From a virus (lineage: Duplodnaviria; Caudoviricetes), in the IMG/VR virus record IMGVR_UViG_3300032125_000008, positions 1 through 43,747 of that record: a stretch of 43,747 nucleotides of DNA. One strand, given 5' to 3'. Positions 13,572-37,369 of the stretch are shown piece after piece (position 1 is the first letter of the stretch; each line of letters begins with the position of its first letter). The notes under the pieces are model-generated. The model was given only the letters and a program-made list of their open reading frames with translations, was not told the DNA's origin and did not search any database. Position numbers and translations under genes: made by a program.

Positions 13572-13753
13572 ACAGCATCCGTTACTTCTATATGAAAGTG
13601 TGTTTTAACGATGTCTGCATAAGCTTTAGACATTCTAGTGTTCCTTTGCCATTGACTTACAGACTGAGGTGATGCACCAATTAACTGAGCAAATCTATAC
13701 CCAGAAATATTGTGCTCTTTTAAAATACACTCAACTGCCGCTTTAGTATTCAT
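13568..13753 (-). CDS. Cro/XRE-like HTH protein
   Basis: SGYRFAQLIGASPQSVSQW helix-turn-helix. Confidence 0.75.
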   Translation of the reverse strand: MNTKAAVECILKEHNISGYRFAQLIGASPQSVSQWQRNTRMSKAYADIVKTHFHIEVTDAV

Positions 13754-14643
13754 ACTCTAACCACTGCAGCATCAATAAACACATCTTCATCAGAATACTC
13801 CACATCAAAAGGCGACAGCAATTCTTCAGTTCTGTCTTCTTTAGTCTGAGTAATCTTAGTACTATACAATACTTCTATTGTTTCTTTAATTAGCTCAGGA
13901 GTATAGCGTGTATCAATTAGCTCTTGATTCTGCTTAAACCTGTTTAATGCAACTTTATCTAGCAGTTCACAGTTTTCTAGATTGTCTGGGTAATGCTCAC
14001 TGACTTCTGCAATTATCTTTTTAGTTATAGATTTTTGACGTGGCTTGTCTCCTTCGATCATAAAGAAGTCTTCTACACTAAACACGTTAGGTATGCCGTC
14101 ACCTGTGTCACCTTTTAAAATGTGAGTAACAAGATCGTACTCAGTGTTTTCTAACGTCAACATCTTGTTGCGATTAGGGCTGAACTGGAATGTACCAGAG
14201 TACAAAGTTTGCAACTGAATCATGTCTTTGTCGCTAGATACGATTACAGTCTTTTCATCTTTATCATGAGCATACTTAGCTAACACTGCAATAACATCGT
14301 CAGCTTCTGCGCCACGAGTATCAATCATAACATAATTAGTGTATTCAATGATGTCTTGCTTTAGAATAGCTAAGTGTTCATAAAACAAATCACTGTTAAT
14401 TGTAGACGTCTCGCGTGCTTTAAGTCGTGGAGCTTTGTATGCAGGTTGTACATACGAACGCCAATAAGGTTTATTGTCTGCACATATAATCATACGACCG
14501 AACTGCTCACTGTACTGCTTTTCGTAATCAATCAAATCTGTGAAAAGTGTATGTCTAACTTGCTCAATACTAGGCTCTTGTTCGTTAACATAAAAGTTGA
14601 TGATTTTATGATAAGCGACACCTGACAAATCAATAAGTAGCAT
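13750..14643 (-). CDS. T4-type RNase H / 5'-3' flap exonuclease
   Basis: LLIDLS, YWRS.V.PAYK..R, EADDVIA, SSDKDMIQL, LKGDTGDGIPN; start moved to 14643 (GGAG RBS). Confidence 0.9.
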   Translation of the reverse strand: MLLIDLSGVAYHKIINFYVNEQEPSIEQVRHTLFTDLIDYEKQYSEQFGRMIICADNKPYWRSYVQPAYKAPRLKARETSTINSDLFYEHLAILKQDIIEYTNYVMIDTRGAEADDVIAVLAKYAHDKDEKTVIVSSDKDMIQLQTLYSGTFQFSPNRNKMLTLENTEYDLVTHILKGDTGDGIPNVFSVEDFFMIEGDKPRQKSITKKIIAEVSEHYPDNLENCELLDKVALNRFKQNQELIDTRYTPELIKETIEVLYSTKITQTKEDRTEELLSPFDVEYSDEDVFIDAAVVRV

Positions 14644-14780
14644 AATAGGTACTCCAAAGTAAAGGTGATTAAGATCTCCTGTGGCCTCCGTCACCAAGTT
14701 TAAATTTAGGCCCTGATAAACATATTAGCCTAGATTTAAAACTTGATGACGACTACGAAAACCACGTAGAATCTGATTTT

Positions 14781-15368
14781 TTAAATATCGATTTTCGTCT
14801 TTGATTGCCCGTCCAATTCGATCAAAAAAGCCATGTTTGTCATAGCATGCCACAAGTGTGGCATACCTGAGTCTTGATCGTGTATTTCTCCTTCTCTATA
14901 GTCTTGTATGTGTCTTAGCATAGCCGCTTCGTAACGACTAAGGTCATCGCAGTTACGCCAATTGTCCGGCTTGTACTTTCTTGCACCAAATGTTAATACT
15001 TCAGCTAAAGCTCTAGTTGAAGATGCTGGAACTAAGTCTAGTCTGAGTTTATCTCCATCGAATTTAATAAACTCCTCGACGACTTCAACACTGGTTATAC
15101 CTGTGTCCATTAATATTGCTGCGCAGTTAGGACAAGGTGGCTGAGACACGTAAGCAGTATATGGACCTGTGTCATTGTCTTCAAATTCGTCACAAGCCAT
15201 CGCTTCAGCATGAATGTCTGGTGTCTCATCATCGTCAAAAGAAGCATTGCGACCTGCAGCAATTATTGATCCATTTTTATTTACGATGACACAACCTACT
15301 TTGCGCTTATCTACGTTAGACTTAGCTGCTTCAGCAAGTACGTATTTAACTATCTCTTTAGTAGCCAT
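14781..15368 (-). CDS. dCMP deaminase fused to a DUF5664-type dATP/dGTP diphosphohydrolase domain
   Basis: N-half KVGCVIV, HAE, PCPNC (CDA fold); C-half KFDGDKLRLDLVP...VLTFGARKY..NW...AMLRH...DSGMPHLWHA. Confidence 0.85.
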   Translation of the reverse strand: MATKEIVKYVLAEAAKSNVDKRKVGCVIVNKNGSIIAAGRNASFDDDETPDIHAEAMACDEFEDNDTGPYTAYVSQPPCPNCAAILMDTGITSVEVVEEFIKFDGDKLRLDLVPASSTRALAEVLTFGARKYKPDNWRNCDDLSRYEAAMLRHIQDYREGEIHDQDSGMPHLWHAMTNMAFLIELDGQSKTKIDI

Positions 15369-15940
15369 TAGACACCTTTATCTATGATTGCTTGTAAGCG
15401 TGGCTCAGGCGGTACAAAGTATGCGCCTTTGTCACCTGCGTTAGCTTTTATATGCGAGTCAGTCTTTTTGATAGACTTAGAGTCATTACTATCACATACT
15501 ACAAGTAATGCTTCTACAAATTCTTCAGATGTCAAACCGTTGTAGTTTGCTTGAGCAAAGCTCAAAGTAATTAGCATTTGAATGTTGTGAATATGAGACG
15601 ACACAACTTTAGTGTTAGAAAATCTACTTAGCACCATTGAACTTATTTCAACTGGTTCAAAAGAATCAGTATTATTTAACATCCTAATAACTGCATTATG
15701 CGCTTTACTTTCACTATTTACAATAGCTTCATTTGCTACGTCTAGTTTCCATATAACGCCTAGCGCTACATAAACTACATCGCATAGAGCGTCTAGTCTA
15801 TCAACGTCTGTATCTGCATCAAAGTATTCTTGTAATTCTTCTTTTAACAAATCTACACTTAGCTCGTGATTATAGTCGCGTGCGTACCTAAGTGAATTCC
15901 AATTAATTACTTTGTCATACACTACATTCATGTTAATCAT
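15368..15940 (-). CDS. MazG-like all-alpha NTP pyrophosphohydrolase
   Basis: LLKEELQEY...DALCDVVYVA acidic motif; C-terminal V.DSN.SK...K...FVPPE. Confidence 0.75.
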   Translation of the reverse strand: MINMNVVYDKVINWNSLRYARDYNHELSVDLLKEELQEYFDADTDVDRLDALCDVVYVALGVIWKLDVANEAIVNSESKAHNAVIRMLNNTDSFEPVEISSMVLSRFSNTKVVSSHIHNIQMLITLSFAQANYNGLTSEEFVEALLVVCDSNDSKSIKKTDSHIKANAGDKGAYFVPPEPRLQAIIDKGV

Positions 15941-15966
15941 GCTTTTAACTCCTTTAGTTAACTAGT

Positions 15967-16773
15967 TTACGCCTTGAGTTCTAAGTCAAGTTTAGCGTGT
16001 GATTGATATACACTCAGTGCAATATCGCTGGGTTTAAACATACAAAAATCTTTGCCTGGTTTAGATGTCAACCTGTAAGTTGGTGCATTACCCGGTAGTG
16101 GACTGCAGCATACTTTCTTTATGTACTGTAGTGCTGCTTCGTAGTGCTCAGCATAGATGTGGCAATCACCGAGTGACATCTTAATTTCACCTGGCTGTAA
16201 ACTAAACTCATTAGCAATAGCTATTAGCCAAGCAGCTGCAAATACAATATCTGATGGTAGACCGATCATCATATCAACTGAACGCTGTGTCCACAGCATA
16301 TCAAGATACTTACCATCACGAACATAGAATTGATACATCATGTGACAGCAAGGTAAATCTAACTCATCAAGCTTTTCTGGTCGCCAGCCATTAATAATCA
16401 TACGACGATTCATAGGATCATAAGCTAGTGCATGCTTTAGCTTTTTAATCTGATCGTCAGCATGCCATGCATTGCCATAGTCGACGTTTATAGAACCATC
16501 TTCTTTAGCCCACTGATCCCAATAATTACAGCCCCACGTTCTAAAATCATAAATATTAGTAGGCTTACGTAGCATTGCTGCTAGCTCACCGAATACACCT
16601 TGCGGATACATCTTGCGGCCTTGCAAAATTGGGAATGAGTTGGTGCCATTTATTGGAACAGTTAACATATCACCAAACAGAGATATAGTTTCACCGTTAC
16701 GGGTCTGTCGTCTTTCACCGTTAGATAAAATGTAGCCTATCATGTCAGCGTAGTGTCGTTCAAACTGTTGCAT
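15967..16773 (-). CDS. thyA: thymidylate synthase homologue with Asp at the E. coli Asn177 position (possible dCMP methyltransferase)
   Basis: TRNG, GRK, YWDQW, RRMII.GW, LPCCH, QFYV, QRSVD..IGLPSD, DCHIY. Confidence 0.9.
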   Translation of the reverse strand: MQQFERHYADMIGYILSNGERRQTRNGETISLFGDMLTVPINGTNSFPILQGRKMYPQGVFGELAAMLRKPTNIYDFRTWGCNYWDQWAKEDGSINVDYGNAWHADDQIKKLKHALAYDPMNRRMIINGWRPEKLDELDLPCCHMMYQFYVRDGKYLDMLWTQRSVDMMIGLPSDIVFAAAWLIAIANEFSLQPGEIKMSLGDCHIYAEHYEAALQYIKKVCCSPLPGNAPTYRLTSKPGKDFCMFKPSDIALSVYQSHAKLDLELKA

Positions 16774-16783
16774 AGCATTCTCC

Positions 16784-16981
16784 TTATCGTAAATGATTAA
16801 TTTTTAAACAGTTGTTTAACTCACACCATATAGCTGATCTGCATTCTCGATGTAACTCTTCTTCTGTTTCAGGTGTTGTGCCTAATGGACAATTTTGAAG
16901 TACGTCAGATAAATATCTTGCTTCATCTTCATTTAAGTCAAGTAGTACTCGTGTGCTTGTTTGTACTGTTGAACGTGCCAT
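16784..16981 (-). CDS. hypothetical protein
   Basis: Likely start MARST at 16981 with GGAG RBS, downstream of the promoter at 17009-17037. Confidence 0.6.
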   Translation of the reverse strand: MARSTVQTSTRVLLDLNEDEARYLSDVLQNCPLGTTPETEEELHRECRSAIWCELNNCLKINHLR

Positions 16982-17008
16982 AATTAACTCCATTGATTTA
17001 TTAAATAC

Positions 17009-17050
17009 ATTATACCGTACTACATCCAGTTTGTTAAATAACATTTTGGA
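17009..17050 (-). promoter_or_regulatory. sigma70-like promoter TTAACA-17-TATAAT with upstream TCCAAAnnnTTAT motif
   Basis: -10 at 17009-17014, -35 at 17032-17037; shares its motif with the 25471 and 33096 promoters. Confidence 0.75.
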
Positions 17051-17070
17051 CTAAGCTTATAACTTATTGT

Positions 17071-18789
17071 TTATTTACTTATGCCTGTGTTAAGTCTGTC
17101 ATACATGACCATCCCATCTAAGTGATAGTCCCAAACATTAGCACAATCATCGTCTTCAATGTCACCCCAATTGAAACCAACAGCTACGTCTACAGGCATA
17201 GGCAGGTCTTTGATCTTGTACAACTTACTCATTTCTACCCATGCTTCCTGCATACACTCTGCTAGCTTTATTGCTACTGCTTTATACACTTCAGGATCAT
17301 TAGTAGCATCAATAATAAATGAGTCATGAATGAAGTCACCTATCATGACATCTGTATTACACTCTTTATTATAGTTAGCTAACCATGGAGCAAAGTAATG
17401 AAGAGCCAATTTAGCCACTTCTGCGCCAGCGCCTTGATTCATGATGTTCATTTGATCTGTCATAAGATTACCTACATACTTACGACCAAAAGGTGTGCTA
17501 CCTAACTCACCGCGTCTCCAAGCACTTATTTCTTTTTGTTGCCACTTATTAATTTCACCAAACAAACTTAGCCATTTACGCTTGTGTCTTGTAGCTAGTC
17601 GCTCTTCTATCAACAAACCGTAAGTAATCAGTATGCTTAGTACCATACCAACAGAGCCGCCATACAGTAAATTAAAATTGTACGTCTTAGTTACTTGTCT
17701 ATCTTTCTTCGTCCAATCTTCGCCAAACAATACTGATGCCACAAAGCCGTGCAAATCCACGCCTTTTCTGAACATTTCTTCCATTAGCTTAATAGCAAGA
17801 ATAGCACATATAGTTCTTAGCTCTAGCTGAGCATAATCTGAATAAATAAGGATGCGATCTGAATCAACAGGGTAACCAAACACTACTTTTAGAGCTCTTG
17901 GTATTTGCTGAAGGTTTTCATCAGACGAAGTAAATCGACCTGACCTAGCTGACGGTTTAAACTTACCTATAACTCTTTCTACATCGTACTTAGTTAAAAA
18001 GCTAAGTAGCTTGCTTCGTGTACGAACGTCTAACACTGCGCGCGCTTTATCATTACCACGCAATGCCAACTCAGATAGAAATTTCTTGTCTGACTGTTCT
18101 ACATTAAGCCACTTGCGTACTTGCTGCCAGGAGTTAGCATTAATAGGCATTGGTATTGCTGCAAGTTCTTTACTGATTCTTGTATACTCTGCATTCAATC
18201 GTTCACTATCTACGGGCATGCCATTCCATTGAAAGTCTAGTGCTATACGAAGGCTAGACATATCAAGTTGGTATACAGGTGTTTCAATTGCTGATTTTAC
18301 TGCTTCCCATACTTCTGGCATGTACTTAACATCTAATGCAGCATACAACAGTTGATCTTTTGTTAATGATGGTGAAGACCAATCTGACTTTTGCAATATG
18401 CTTTTATTCAATCCTGCTTTATTATAAGGATCATAACCAATAACGCTAGTTATAGCTGCATCTAGCGAAAACTCCATCCAGTAAGGCTTAGCTATACGTG
18501 CAGCTAGGAATGTATCGTCGAATTTTTCAGGAACGAATCTAGTGCCAGTTTGTTGCTGCGCTGTAGTTATATCGTAATGTGAGTTGTGCCAAATTGTATA
18601 ATGCTTTATTATGAAAGCAGCTAGCTGAATAGAATTAGGCCATTCAACTAGTAGTACATGTTTCCAATCTTTTTGATAACACTGTAGTAGTCTAACTTTA
18701 CCATAAAAGCCGCAAGTTTCAGTGTCACAAAATAGAGGCTGAGATTCATCAACAACAACAATGTCTATAAGCTTAACTATTCTATACAT
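17071..18789 (-). CDS. polA: DNA polymerase family A with 3'-5' exonuclease
   Basis: Exo DTET / HNSHYD / YAALD; SGRF..S..NLQQIP; motif A DYAQLELR; motif B RQVTKTYNFNLLYG; motif C IHDS; start probably 18789. Confidence 0.95.
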   Translation of the reverse strand: MYRIVKLIDIVVVDESQPLFCDTETCGFYGKVRLLQCYQKDWKHVLLVEWPNSIQLAAFIIKHYTIWHNSHYDITTAQQQTGTRFVPEKFDDTFLAARIAKPYWMEFSLDAAITSVIGYDPYNKAGLNKSILQKSDWSSPSLTKDQLLYAALDVKYMPEVWEAVKSAIETPVYQLDMSSLRIALDFQWNGMPVDSERLNAEYTRISKELAAIPMPINANSWQQVRKWLNVEQSDKKFLSELALRGNDKARAVLDVRTRSKLLSFLTKYDVERVIGKFKPSARSGRFTSSDENLQQIPRALKVVFGYPVDSDRILIYSDYAQLELRTICAILAIKLMEEMFRKGVDLHGFVASVLFGEDWTKKDRQVTKTYNFNLLYGGSVGMVLSILITYGLLIEERLATRHKRKWLSLFGEINKWQQKEISAWRRGELGSTPFGRKYVGNLMTDQMNIMNQGAGAEVAKLALHYFAPWLANYNKECNTDVMIGDFIHDSFIIDATNDPEVYKAVAIKLAECMQEAWVEMSKLYKIKDLPMPVDVAVGFNWGDIEDDDCANVWDYHLDGMVMYDRLNTGISK

Positions 18790-19039
18790 TGTTTTTTCTG
18801 CATGCTGGTGGACATTCATCATTAGTATCCCAAGTTGTTCTACAGAAATGGCATATAGTTTGACAACTGTACTGTATTGCTTCGCAATTACTGCTTATGT
18901 AATACACACAATCTTGCCATTCTTTACAACCGCGCGGATCATAGTCTTTTTCTTTTTTAGCGTCTTCATAACCTGCTGTATATAACGCGTCTAGTAATTC
19001 GTGTGTTTTTGCTGCTGATTTAATTACTGGCTTATTCAT
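18782..19039 (-). CDS. Cys-rich hypothetical protein
   Basis: Overlaps both neighbours; 8 Cys in the C-terminal half. Confidence 0.5.
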   Translation of the reverse strand: MNKPVIKSAAKTHELLDALYTAGYEDAKKEKDYDPRGCKEWQDCVYYISSNCEAIQYSCQTICHFCRTTWDTNDECPPACRKNNV

Positions 19040-19331
19040 GAGTACATTCAGCCTCTATTCTAGAGCAGTCGTCAAAAGTTAGTTTATTAGTTAGCCACTC
19101 AGCATAATAACCTTTACGGTCAACTAAGTGCCAAATAACATCTGCTTCTTCGGGAGGGTCGCAGTCGCCGGGGCCGGCTCCAGGAAAGGTATGCTGCTTC
19201 CAAGGTTTTGCATGTGTGTAGCTATCAATTACTACACCACAAGGAATGCCTGAAACAGTTGTTGTAAAATCTGCTACTTCGCGATTACTCATAGTTGACT
19301 CCAGCGTCAGTGAGCAATTAATTAATAGCAT
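19032..19331 (-). CDS. hypothetical phage protein
   Basis: GIPCGVVI...DPPE...DRKGY.AEWL pattern; start may be at the downstream MSNRE. Confidence 0.6.
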   Translation of the reverse strand: MLLINCSLTLESTMSNREVADFTTTVSGIPCGVVIDSYTHAKPWKQHTFPGAGPGDCDPPEEADVIWHLVDRKGYYAEWLTNKLTFDDCSRIEAECTHE

Positions 19332-19363
19332 ACTTTAACCGGTATGCCAGCGGCTGTTGTTAC

Positions 19364-20020
19364 TTATAGACGTGGCTTGCCTTTAGGAGCATCACCTTCT
19401 GGTTCTGGTTCCTGACGTTCATCACCTGTCCAACCTTCATCACCTGTCCAACCTTCACCGTCTTCTGGCTCAGCTGCGTCAAAGCCTGCGTCAGTAGTGA
19501 ATTCTTCCAGTTTCAGAATTTGGATAGCGTCCAAATACAAAGTAACACCTGCATCTACCAAAGCACCTTTAGGTGTTGAATTGGTATAGATAGCCATGGC
19601 GCCAGAAATGACACCGACTGAACCATTACCAATCTTAGTACCTTCAGGAAGCTGCACTTTGCGAGCTCGAGTGTTGTACACTTGTACTACCTTCGGCTTG
19701 CCATCTGGAAACGATGTTCCAGTTTTAAATGCTAGATACAACTTACCATCTTCTTTATAGATGGCTTTACCGTCTTCGTCCTTTTCACCTGTAGCATTTT
19801 TGTGAACATAAATACCATTGGACTTAGCATCTTTCTTAAATCCTGCTGGCTTGTTATCTTCCCAAAACTTCTCAATTGCTGCAACAATAGGATCGTTAGC
19901 TTCAATAACTACGTTAGCAACATATTGCAGCTTACCAGACAAATTCTCTTTGCCGCTACCGTCGATTGTTACCCACTCAAGATTGCCTTTAGGTGACTTG
20001 AACTTTGCGATACTAGACAT
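19364..20020 (-). CDS. single-stranded DNA-binding protein (T7 gp2.5-like)
   Basis: SPKG.LEW, KIGNGS.G, GVTLYLDAIQILKLEEF, acidic C-terminal tail; located beside polA. Confidence 0.8.
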   Translation of the reverse strand: MSSIAKFKSPKGNLEWVTIDGSGKENLSGKLQYVANVVIEANDPIVAAIEKFWEDNKPAGFKKDAKSNGIYVHKNATGEKDEDGKAIYKEDGKLYLAFKTGTSFPDGKPKVVQVYNTRARKVQLPEGTKIGNGSVGVISGAMAIYTNSTPKGALVDAGVTLYLDAIQILKLEEFTTDAGFDAAEPEDGEGWTGDEGWTGDERQEPEPEGDAPKGKPRL

Positions 20021-29704: not shown

Positions 29705-30196
29705 TTACTCAGAATCACGTGCTTCGCTGTCTGCAATGCACTCTTCAAGTGTTTCAAAGCCATAACCGTCTTCACGTGGTTCGATCCGTGCAGTGTCTTC
29801 AGCAATCCGTTCTTGCTCGCCGGCAATATCTTCAATTGCAAGCTCGCCTGAAGCAACTAGGCCGAGCAGTTCAGCTTCTTGAGACTTAGCTTCGCGTTGT
29901 TGCTTAGTCCATTTGCTGACGCCGTCTTTACACATGTTGTTAAGACCTGTTGGGCTGGTAGCTTTCTTACCGAACTCAACAACTTCAGGGTTCATCCACA
30001 ATTTGTGGTAGTAGCACTTGATTGCATCTACTTCGCCAGCTTCATTACGATGAAACGCTGTTGCTTTACCGCCGCCTGCACCAGTCTTGGCACTAGCCAT
30101 ATCGATAACATCTTGCAGCACGTCGCTTACCTTAGCACCTTCGTTAGCTTGCAACAGTTCAACAATACCTTGATACGCTTTCTTAATTGTAGCCAT
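29705..30196 (-). CDS. hypothetical protein, paralogue of 32287..32781
   Basis: Own promoter and terminator; CYYHK.W and G.N.MCK.GVS.WTKQQR motifs. Confidence 0.85.
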   Translation of the reverse strand: MATIKKAYQGIVELLQANEGAKVSDVLQDVIDMASAKTGAGGGKATAFHRNEAGEVDAIKCYYHKLWMNPEVVEFGKKATSPTGLNNMCKDGVSKWTKQQREAKSQEAELLGLVASGELAIEDIAGEQERIAEDTARIEPREDGYGFETLEECIADSEARDSE

Positions 30197-32286: not shown

Positions 32287-32781
32287 CTATAGCTCTTCGT
32301 TCACTGCATTGTTGTGCACTTCAAGAGCTTCATCTGCACTGGTATAGCCTTGACCATCTTCACGTGGCTTGATTTTGCTAGCTATCTCTGCAAGCTTCTC
32401 TTGCTCGCTAGCGATGTCCTCAACTGCAAGCTCTCCACTAGCAACCTTATTAAGGATACCAGCTTCATCTTGTTTCTTAGCTCGCTGCTGCTTGGTCCAA
32501 TTACTAACACCCTCTTTGCACATAGTGTTATAACCTGTAGCAGTGCCCTTCTTGGAGCCATAAGCAACATCCCTGACTAGCTCCCAAGTCTTATGGTAGT
32601 AGCAATAGATAGCTATAACTTCACCCTCATCGTCTTTGATGAAAGTATTAGCTTGACCGCTAGCATTATTCTTACGCTGCATCATTTCTATAAGCTGAGG
32701 CATGATTGTAGCCACTTTCTTCGCTTTATTAGCTTCCAAAAATGCATGCAGTTCTTCGTATTGCTTTTTGACATTAGTCAT
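32287..32781 (-). CDS. hypothetical early protein, paralogue of 29705..30196
   Basis: GGAGG RBS before MTNVKKQY; same motifs as its paralogue. Confidence 0.85.
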   Translation of the reverse strand: MTNVKKQYEELHAFLEANKAKKVATIMPQLIEMMQRKNNASGQANTFIKDDEGEVIAIYCYYHKTWELVRDVAYGSKKGTATGYNTMCKEGVSNWTKQQRAKKQDEAGILNKVASGELAVEDIASEQEKLAEIASKIKPREDGQGYTSADEALEVHNNAVNEEL

Positions 32782-32870
32782 GATTGCCTCCAACGGCATT
32801 TAGTTGAATGCTTGATGCACTCACTTAAGACTCTATGTTACCACAAAGTCTTAAGGGTGTACATCTTTAT

Positions 32871-36140: not shown

Positions 36141-36872
36141 ATGCCAGGACAAAATGGTACTCCGAGCGAAGAGAATGCTCGGAACACGTCTTACGAGAGC
36201 AAAGTAAATGAAGTAATCACCGGTTCAACTAGAGGTGAAGATGGTAAGCTTACATTTCCTGAAGGAACAGATGAAAGTCTAGCATTCTCAGCTACTGCTG
36301 AAATTCGTCGTCGTGATACCCAAGGTGCTTACACAAAGAATCAACAAACTCTTAAAGCGTTACAAGCTGAAAATGAAAAGCTTGCATCATCATGGGAAAG
36401 CGACGCTGTTGCTAACCTTAGCTCAACTGAACAAGCTAGTCTCGAAGAGCTTAAAGTCCAAGACCCAGATACTTGGCGTTCAGAAATTGCCAGGCTAGAA
36501 GAAGAAAAGCGCGGCAAGTTTAAAGAGCGTCGTACAGCTATTTCTGAAGAAGCATCTCAGACTACAGAGCTAGAACGTCGCGGACTGCAACTCGAACAGT
36601 TCAATAAAGACAACCCTGAAATTGAACTTACAGATGAAGTCATTGAAAACGACATCCCTCCTCGCATTACACGCAAACTTGAAAAAGGCGAAATTCAATT
36701 CGACGAGTACCTAGCTGAAGTTGCTACTTATTTAGGTAAGTCGAAAAAAATTGACCCTGGTAAAACAGCACCTAAAACTCCAGGTTTTGCTGATATCCGC
36801 AGTTCTAACAGCCCAACTGACGACGCTCTTAATAATCAAAGTAAATCAGATTATAATAAGGAGGTTTTCTAA
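36141..36872 (+). CDS. capsid scaffolding protein
   Basis: AAGGA RBS and ATG at 36141; acidic coiled coil upstream of the capsid gene. Confidence 0.65.
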   Translation: MPGQNGTPSEENARNTSYESKVNEVITGSTRGEDGKLTFPEGTDESLAFSATAEIRRRDTQGAYTKNQQTLKALQAENEKLASSWESDAVANLSSTEQASLEELKVQDPDTWRSEIARLEEEKRGKFKERRTAISEEASQTTELERRGLQLEQFNKDNPEIELTDEVIENDIPPRITRKLEKGEIQFDEYLAEVATYLGKSKKIDPGKTAPKTPGFADIRSSNSPTDDALNNQSKSDYNKEVF

Positions 36873-37369
36873 TGTACGTCGGAACTAAAGTAATTAAAGC
36901 TTTACCAATGACTCGTCAAGAGTATAACGACTATCGTAGTTGGCAAATGCTAGAAGATGAAACAGACTGCGATGGTTTCTTAGTTGAATATTTGGAAGGT
37001 GGCAAATCAAATGATATTCGTCACAAAGGCTATATTTCATGGTCACCTGCCGATGTGTTTAATAATGCATATAAAGCTTCAGGCGAGTATTCGTTTGGAC
37101 ATGCAATTGAATTAGCTAAGCTCGGTTATAAAATAGCGCGATCAGGTTGGAACGGTAAAGGCATGTGGGTAATTTATAACCCAGGTAGCTTGGGACAGAC
37201 ACACGCAATGTTTGATGGGTCGGTGTACAAAAACCATGGAGTTGATGAGTGTGAGATTCTTCCACACTTTGATATGTACACCATCAATGCTTATGGGCGT
37301 AGGGCTATGCTGCCAGGGTGGTTGGCAAGTCAAACGGATATGCTAGCAACTGACTGGTGTATTATTTAA
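36872..37369 (+). CDS. DUF2829 / Tad2-like anti-defence nucleotide-signal sponge with extra N-terminal domain
   Basis: C-half FGHAIE..K.G.KIARSGWNGKGMW...W..SQTDMLA.DW is the DUF2829 signature. Confidence 0.8.
   Translation: MYVGTKVIKALPMTRQEYNDYRSWQMLEDETDCDGFLVEYLEGGKSNDIRHKGYISWSPADVFNNAYKASGEYSFGHAIELAKLGYKIARSGWNGKGMWVIYNPGSLGQTHAMFDGSVYKNHGVDECEILPHFDMYTINAYGRRAMLPGWLASQTDMLATDWCII

Follow-up and report, generated by a model that had tools for sequence, protein, structure and literature searches.

Introduction

In phage Xp12, 5-methyl-dCMP (5mdCMP) is made from dCMP by a dCMP methyltransferase and 5-methylcytosine (5mC) replaces all C, as related in PMC8543423, whose reference list includes a 1982 paper on Xp12-infected cells titled 'A new thymidylate biosynthesis'. 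Genes for MazG, a thymidylate synthase (TS), a deaminase and dihydrofolate reductase (DHFR) lie together in the Xp12 genome. The main text of a 2024 preprint (bioRxiv 10.1101/2024.12.05.627091) places a deaminase within 3 kb of TS in 104 of 149 modified contigs and in 17 of 277 unmodified ones, and PRA-PH and PolA rank high among the neighbours there; five of seven linked TS produced 5-methyldeoxycytidine (5mdC) in vivo when T4 gp1 kinase was supplied. The same text describes 5mC-selective deamination as a polyphyletic trait, reports that the deaminase mSCD-B5 acts on 5mdCTP (99% in 30 min) and not on 5mdCMP, and proposes in its discussion that dTTP arises from 5mdCTP with dUMP bypassed. Here we describe a related locus, positions 14,781 to 16,773 of the virus record IMGVR_UViG_3300032125_000008. 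This record, 43,747 nucleotides long and analysed as a whole (hereafter the window), encodes at the locus a TS homologue, a MazG-like pyrophosphatase and a deaminase fused to the domain DUF5664.

The window is a complete, podovirus-like, KF-1-like phage genome of 43.6 kb whose terminal 127 bases are identical at both ends. An earlier note on its sequence had read the three genes as a new pyrimidine pathway with two alternative purposes: model A, synthesis of 5-methyl- or hydroxymethyl-dCMP for a C-modified genome, and model B, a route from dCTP through dCMP and 5mdCMP to dTMP. The pathway is not new, being known from Xp12 (1976, 1982) and from the 2024 preprint, and in the scheme set out in those sources the two models are halves of one pathway. 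The new point is that DUF5664 swaps, in one slot of the module, with a gene resembling deoxynucleoside monophosphate (dNMP) kinases. It is very probable that the locus as a whole is a 5mdCMP/5mC module.

Predicted methylation of dCMP by the TS homologue

The sole TS among the 60 open reading frames (ORFs) of the window that were scanned is a ThyA-family enzyme of 268 amino acids (15967..16773, minus strand; PF00303, E 4.8e-57), a predicted 5-methyl-dCMP synthase. Its residues were mapped to E. coli ThyA from NC_000913.3. As the earlier note had stated, Asp175 (codon GAT, 16249..16251, minus strand) occupies the position of E. coli Asn177, which governs dCMP specificity, within a motif that aligns without gaps (residues 163-175). 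The other active-site residues listed there are also retained, namely the catalytic Cys143 (16345..16347, minus strand; E. coli Cys146), the Arg pair R123/R124 (R126/R127), W85/W88 (W80/W83) and H205/Y207 (H207/Y209), and H144 corresponds to E. coli H147. Spanning contigs from three runs (X16, X17 and X4, the last an RNA run used as contigs, which says nothing on transcription) agree over the TS codon region with 0 letter differences, so Asp175 is no assembly error.

The alignment comprises 84 rows (the window plus 83 loci, 4 duplicates included), and 82 of them show Asp at position 177; one of the remaining rows is an outgroup with Asn and the other is truncated. Throughout the clade, to which KF-1, VPMS1, Amaethon, PH1 and Kolga belong, this Asp is fixed, and all 34 canonical control TS carry Asn there. 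His147 is retained in 77 of the 82 Asp-type rows.

Published residue rules allow a product to be predicted. According to PMC8670742, exchange of Asn for Asp at 177 switches preference to dCMP, and the rules given in PMC13326640 assign Asp177 to dCMP, Asp or Glu at 143 to a hydroxymethyl product and Asn169 to 5-hydroxy-dCMP. In the window the three diagnostic positions 177, 143 and 169 are Asp, Leu and Asp, with Leu140 (16354..16356, minus strand) at the position of E. coli Leu143, where it correlates with a methyl rather than a hydroxymethyl product, and Asp167 (16273..16275, minus strand) at that of Asp169; in Xp12 they are Asp, Val and Asp (V163 and D188 at 143 and 169). The window TS thus departs from canonical dUMP methylases (Asn177), from T4-type dCMP hydroxymethylases (Asp/Glu at 143) and from RB69 gp48-type 5-hydroxy-dCMP synthases (Asn at 169). 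The claim of a dCMP-specific TS, based on Asp175 and these rules, is well supported, and the signature points to an enzyme that methylates dCMP rather than one that hydroxymethylates or hydroxylates it. Of the two products in model A, the 5-methyl form is the one predicted, and Leu140 speaks against the hydroxymethyl option.

The surroundings of the TS resemble those of Xp12-type systems. Like the Xp12/PaMx74 system, the window combines a ThyA fold with catalytic Cys and Asp177, a hydrophobic residue at 143 and Asp169 with adjacent genes for MazG/PRA-PH and a PF00383 deaminase. The modules of Xp12 and the window both include a small helical domain, which is DUF1599 behind MazG in the former and DUF5664 behind the deaminase in the latter. 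The content TS(N177D), dCMP deaminase, MafB19-deam, PRA-PH and PolA is also that of the MetaGPA neighbourhoods described in bioRxiv 10.1101/2024.12.05.627091 and PMC8670742. Unlike the window fusion, mSCD-B5 is a single 154-aa domain and T4 gp1 served there as kinase; neither 'fusion' nor 'diphosphohydrolase' occurs in the main text of that preprint.

The closest cultured relatives by TS are the Edwardsiella phages KF-1, IW-1, ETP-1 and ZHX (56% identity), followed by Vibrio phage VPMS1, Dickeya phage Amaethon and Pseudoalteromonas phage PH1 (48-54%). KF-1 (Kafunavirus), Amaethon, PH1 and VPMS1 share the TS signature and gene order with the window, and their TS are annotated as ordinary thymidylate synthase. 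Among the papers listed in our literature search, and in passages of PMC8472413, we saw no base analysis of the DNA of these four phages.

One of four families accompanies nearly every Asp-type TS

As the earlier note had described, TS is followed by a MazG-like gene (ORF 15368-15940) and then by a deaminase fusion (ORF 14781-15368), whose partner, unnamed there, is DUF5664. The deaminase domain (amino acids 5-96, 15081..15356, minus strand; PF00383) forms the N-terminal half of the fusion and DUF5664 (PF18909; amino acids 102-190, 14799..15065, minus strand; E 3.8e-30), a candidate 5mdCMP-phosphorylating enzyme, the C-terminal half. DUF5664 scores 104 bits against a curated cut-off of 27, and matches in the BFVD database include SH-Ab 15497. 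The Zn motifs HAE and PCxxC of the deaminase are conserved across 98 homologues. As in mSCD enzymes, a PF00383 domain with both motifs is linked to an Asp-type TS, and the window deaminase is predicted, by analogy, to act on 5-methyl-dC nucleotides. The same fusion is present in KF-1, Amaethon and PH1. VPMS1 has DUF6378 instead of DUF5664: in the deaminase-fusion position its gene MS_034 (L002:9366-9896) carries DUF6378 behind an N-terminal part without a deaminase match, possibly a decayed deaminase.

The earlier note had proposed a survey of TS neighbourhoods. Among 78 tabulated Asp-type loci (six rows were dropped: one Asn177, four duplicates and one truncated), 62 contain the MazG cluster and 48 the deaminase cluster. 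Beside TS we found DUF5664 in 28 loci (fused to the deaminase in 24), DUF1599 in 27, DUF6378 in 13, a P-loop gene in 3 and none of these in 7. No locus has two of the four families (0/78). After dereplication at 90% TS identity, one family is present in 57 of 61 loci and two in 0/61, compared with a shuffled expectation of two families in 13.7 loci on average and 6 at minimum (20,000 shuffles). Three loci with nothing near TS carry DUF5664 elsewhere in the record.

The pattern extends to whole records. In 58 long-contig records drawn from ~100 Asp-type loci, a few of them near-duplicates, DUF5664 is encoded in 22, DUF1599 in 16, DUF6378 in 10 and the P-loop gene in 9, all in different records and without overlap. 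Exactly one family is thus present in 57/58; the exception (G026), 67% complete, has none. Shuffled records gave exactly one family in 25.2 cases on average and 44 at most (100,000 shuffles), and kinship among the relatives means that the shuffles overstate significance.

Among 34 size-matched control records with Asn177 TS, chosen from 80 matches plus L013, DUF5664 is found in 3, DUF6378 in 1, and DUF1599 and the P-loop gene in 0, and the 17 records with a completeness of 90% or more carry none of the four; the control is imperfect in that many records are proviruses in which thyA may belong to the host flank, and in that the test set served to build three of the four models. Left out of the control were 39 Asn177 loci whose motifs suggest the hydroxymethyl-dUMP-synthase type; 4 of them have DUF6378 within 6 kb.

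When the four labels and 'none' were mapped on a quick TS tree, all labels together required 14 changes and the P-loop gene alone 3 separate ones: one lies within the DUF5664-bearing part of the tree (L041) and two lie within the DUF6378-bearing part (L034, L040). The slot swap recurs in the independent Xp12-related clade. Of 20 Asp-type loci there, 12 have a gene ahead of TS that ends in DUF1599 and 7 have one with the same P-loop domain at its end, and 1 is truncated upstream; the P-loop members include Roseobacter RDJL Phi1 and Rhodobacter RcRudolph, and Xp12 itself has DUF1599. A MazG-like N-terminus of this gene is recognised by hidden Markov model (HMM) in 7 loci and by Pfam in Xp12.

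In the loci around the window's relatives, the P-loop gene lies between MazG and the deaminase. It resembles dNMP kinases (TM 0.72 to PF21448 clusters; 0.97 in feature score to clusters of that name), Pfam DNMK matches are sub-threshold only, and some phage homologues are annotated as dNMP kinase. Because DUF5664 and this gene are distributed one for one, DUF5664 is a candidate for the phosphorylation step.

Homology, structure and assay data for the slot

The earlier note had found no recognisable dNMP kinase and argued from this for model B. For P-loop dNMP kinases the observation holds: none was found by motif scan or HMM in the window or in the whole Xp12 genome, and in a Walker A scan of window ORFs of at least 80 aa only a helicase and a structural protein matched. 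As an argument for model B it is weak because DUF5664 fills the slot of a dNMP-kinase-type gene in relatives, and because model B at the triphosphate level would need a kinase too.

A precedent for a small phage nucleotide kinase without a P-loop is T7 gp1.7 (DUF3310; from annotation and Pfam), to which DUF5664, DUF6378 and DUF1599 show no significant profile match. The predicted model of DUF5664 is all-helical (pLDDT 94), and its Foldseek list is filled by its own family; an ESM Atlas search with the DUF5664 part, skipping PF18909, returned no usable match. For the DUF6378 model (pLDDT 96) there was no clear PDB match (best Z 6.2), and Foldseek matches to gp1.7/DUF3310 are weak (E 2-5). Comparison with gp1.7 by hhalign, a shallow profile against a single sequence, gave E 0.33. 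A common superfamily for DUF5664, DUF6378 and DUF1599 could not be established, as neither the profile comparisons nor deeper HMMs of the three, which gave no cross-matches, provided a significant link. It may also be noted that BFVD holds DUF6378-like structures within proteins named HAD or PNKP phosphatase, where these parts may stand in the place usual for a kinase domain.

DUF5664 is widespread in many other phages. A comparative paper on base-modification domains (Iyer 2013) may contain an earlier mention of Nmad1 with kinases, and a 5mdCMP kinase activity induced by Xp12 was reportedly described in the 1980s; the latter is not used as evidence here. Among the matches listed in our literature searches, no title or abstract start mentions a kinase role for DUF5664, DUF6378 or DUF1599, and subscription papers and supplements may hold more.

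The PF18909 domain of the window (E 3.8e-30) is also found in the Z-genome phages Wayne and SH-Ab 15497 (PMC12884076), where it occurs by itself or joined to DUF550 and is reported to be a diphosphatase for dATP, dUTP and dGTP; in the window, by contrast, it belongs to a cytosine module, its fusion partner is a deaminase and a kinase-type gene replaces it in some relatives. The Wayne protein has a kcat of 0.05-0.48 per s, compared with up to 16 for Dut enzymes, and in the assays described in PMC12884076 the dNTP was supplied without an acceptor. PF18909 is treated as a diphosphohydrolase in the text of bioRxiv 10.1101/2025.10.22.683976. In 12 purZ loci with at most 4 kb of flanking sequence, DUF5664 is present in 4, DUF6378 stands next to purZ in 1, neither is found in 7 and a P-loop kinase in 0. 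The DUF6378 gene (L241:3367-3984) lies immediately upstream of purZ in a locus without DUF5664.

Several observations weigh against a kinase role for DUF5664. Wayne DUF5664 alone converts dATP, dUTP and dGTP to dNMP, according to PMC12884076. No homology of DUF5664 to known kinases was found, and profile comparisons among DUF5664, DUF6378, DUF1599 and T7 gp1.7 were not significant (E 0.15-0.75). The best match of the DUF5664 model is the all-alpha structure 2p06 (Z 7.0, root-mean-square deviation 3.9, 82 aligned), and MazG-type pyrophosphatases match at Z 3.8-4.1; this likeness is below the tool's bar for helical bundles. The dNMP-kinase assignment of the P-loop gene is itself putative, resting on likeness in sequence and model. 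The alternation also has irregular cases: the near-identical loci L065, L066 and L068 hold DUF1599 beside another, Tmk-like P-loop gene, and G024 carries both DUF1599 and DUF3310.

Other points bear against the 5mC module as such. The window TS is 24% identical to that of Xp12 and forms a separate clade, outside the Xp12 (Bosavirus/Pamexvirus) sequence clade, with Xp12 TS a long outside branch on the quick tree. It keeps His147, which is Pro in Xp12; because position 147, like 177, ranks in PMC8670742 among those that distinguish modified from unmodified contigs, the dCMP reading must be taken with some caution here. Two of the seven predicted 5mdCMP synthases in the main text of bioRxiv 10.1101/2024.12.05.627091 yielded no 5mdC. 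Unlike Xp12, the window, podovirus-like and of 43.6 kb, has no DHFR gene that we could find. Finally, four C-containing palindromes (CGATCG, CGGCCG, TTCGAA and CCGCGG) have 0 occurrences in the window, where 3.3-8.1 each are expected over both strands; full protection of the DNA would not require such loss. Window dinucleotide ratios are 1.40 for GC, 0.78 for CG and 0.76 for CC/GG, and palindrome and dinucleotide counts together cannot decide the modification state of the DNA.

Proposed scheme and alternative explanations

The genes, the Asp/Leu/Asp signature, its conservation and the one-of-four distribution are established for this phage and its clade. We consider it likely overall that they represent an Xp12-type 5mC module with phosphorylation by DUF5664 and diversion to thymine nucleotides by the deaminase. 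The TS homologue would methylate dCMP to 5mdCMP, and the MazG-like enzyme would remove dCTP, thereby supplying dCMP. Phosphorylation of 5mdCMP would fall to DUF5664, which would act as a monophosphate kinase or else transfer a diphosphate from a dNTP. The phage polymerase would incorporate 5mC into DNA, and some of the 5-methyl-dC pool would be turned into thymine nucleotides by the deaminase. Synthesis of 5mdCMP, 5mC DNA and deamination of 5mdCTP to dTTP are known from homologous systems and are proposed here by analogy. The logic is also that of T4 gp42, gp56 and gp1, where C is modified at the nucleotide level, dCTP is removed and a kinase is dedicated to the product; unlike the window, T4 has an acidic residue at 143 (hydroxymethyl), glucosyltransferases and a P-loop kinase.

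That DUF5664 performs the phosphorylation of 5mdCMP is, in our estimation, evenly balanced. All-alpha dUTPases attack at the beta-phosphate. If DUF5664 transferred a diphosphate from dNTP to 5mdCMP, its hydrolase activity would be compatible with the kinase slot and the published hydrolysis would be a side reaction; DUF5664 may in this way make 5mdCTP in one step and pass the product to the fused deaminase. The wider proposal, which could equally prove right or wrong, is that modified dNMPs are phosphorylated by DUF5664, DUF6378 and DUF1599 (Nmad1), non-P-loop enzymes that take the place of a P-loop kinase, DUF5664 doing so here and DUF1599 in Xp12, and that KF-1-like phages are a second fully-5mC lineage.

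A serious, though less probable, alternative is that the module makes 5mC DNA with DUF5664 as a pool-cleaning diphosphatase for dUTP or excess dATP/dGTP, and that a host kinase phosphorylates 5mdCMP. The dNTP-to-dNMP activity measured for Wayne DUF5664 (PMC12884076) favours this, as do the weak fold likeness to all-alpha pyrophosphatases and the presence of the domain in many other phages, and fusion to a deaminase would suit the removal of dUTP made from dCTP. However, such a role leaves unexplained why DUF5664 and the P-loop gene share a slot and never overlap (22 and 9 of 58 records), and a MazG-like enzyme already lies adjacent to the fusion. Moreover, T4 gp1 was supplied in the in vivo TS assay of bioRxiv 10.1101/2024.12.05.627091 to bring modified dCMP into the dNTP pool.

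Model B alone, in which dCTP passes through dCMP and 5mdCMP to dTMP and the DNA is canonical, is unlikely. In its favour, most loci link TS to a deaminase, the phage has no second TS, and the absent C-containing palindromes suggest exposure to restriction. A near-obligate kinase slot would be needless, however, if the end product were dTMP, which is handled by host Tmk. In the text of bioRxiv 10.1101/2024.12.05.627091, the sole linked deaminase to be characterised requires the triphosphate and does not act on 5mdCMP, and such neighbourhoods are enriched in restriction-resistant DNA (the 104/149 and 17/277 cited above). Asp-type TS without a deaminase match in the flank occur in VPMS1, Kolga and L031.

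Still less probable is an ordinary dUMP-using TS despite the Asp, fed by dCMP deaminase and dUTPase. The MazG-like protein DR2231 is a dUTPase, the window TS keeps His147 and most ThyA residues, and the PDB entries that it matches best are canonical TS (~29% identity to E. coli). Against these stand the Asn found in 34/34 canonical controls and the Asp fixed in the window clade, as well as the switch to dCMP on Asn-to-Asp exchange (PMC8670742). Equally improbable is a 5-hydroxymethyl- or 5-hydroxy-dCMP product, given that, although Asp177 is common to T4 gp42 and the 5-hydroxy-dCMP synthases (PMC13326640), the window has Leu at 143 and Asp at 169, and neither a glycosyl- nor a carbamoyltransferase nor any other hypermodifying transferase was found among the 60 window ORFs.

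Neighbouring genes and other features of the window

The MazG-like gene (15368..15940, minus strand) encodes an all-alpha NTP pyrophosphatase of MazG/PRA-PH type with 190 aa (PF01503, E 1.5e-5; phrog_671, E 3.2e-15), a predicted dCTPase; we infer dCTP as its substrate. On the other side of TS lie a 65-aa ORF of unknown function (16784..16981, minus strand; phrog_7471) and the gene for the family A DNA polymerase PolA (17071..18822, minus strand; PF00476, PF01612). In KF-1, Amaethon and PH1 the polymerase abuts TS.

A dedicated promoter for the module, which the earlier note had placed at 17009, finds no support. The consensus match is real: a sigma-70-like site at 17009..17037 (minus strand) has 11 of 12 consensus bases and is the best match within 14000-19500. 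It precedes the 65-aa ORF, however, and a pattern scan upstream of TS revealed no comparable site in 9/9 relatives tested. There is no excess of promoter matches in 14000-19500 (20 sites; shuffles 15.7 +/- 4.0).

Near the TS of L028 there is a Pfam-confirmed DHFR. An ORF of 118-137 aa beside TS in L032, L039, L043, L045, L083 and L084 looks DHFR-like by eye; the 3-4 copies scanned gave no Pfam match. In the window and its closest kin the gene after the module is of 5'-3' exonuclease/RNase H-like type (13750-14697, minus strand, in the window), and in KF-1-like relatives a PD-(D/E)XK nuclease occupies that position, another one-for-one swap. A Tad2-like (anti-Thoeris) domain is encoded at 36872-37369 (plus strand; Pfam E 6e-21), and in one relative a Tad2-like gene lies directly after the deaminase fusion (L063:9048-9470). 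The window also holds a pair of phrog_10459 paralogues (29705-30196 and 32287-32799, both minus strand) and encodes a P22-like portal, PolA, helicases, a ligase and a terminase. The metagenome runs in which the phage was detected (X1-X20) come from 17 studies and are mostly brine, with some aquatic and permafrost samples; 11 of the runs carry a mark as a possible source of this DNA.

Significance

If the scheme is correct, cultured KF-1-like phages whose enzyme is annotated as plain thymidylate synthase would have 5mC DNA, with consequences for how well they withstand restriction and for how they are detected by restriction-based or bisulfite methods. A new class of nucleotide kinases would be formed by three phage domains that are widespread but unclear in function (the DUF6378 profile covers 6,274 proteins and that of DUF1599 4,399). 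An unassigned step of the Xp12 pathway would be filled and the Pfam reading of PF18909 revised, and a native kinase would be gained for making 5mC DNA in E. coli.

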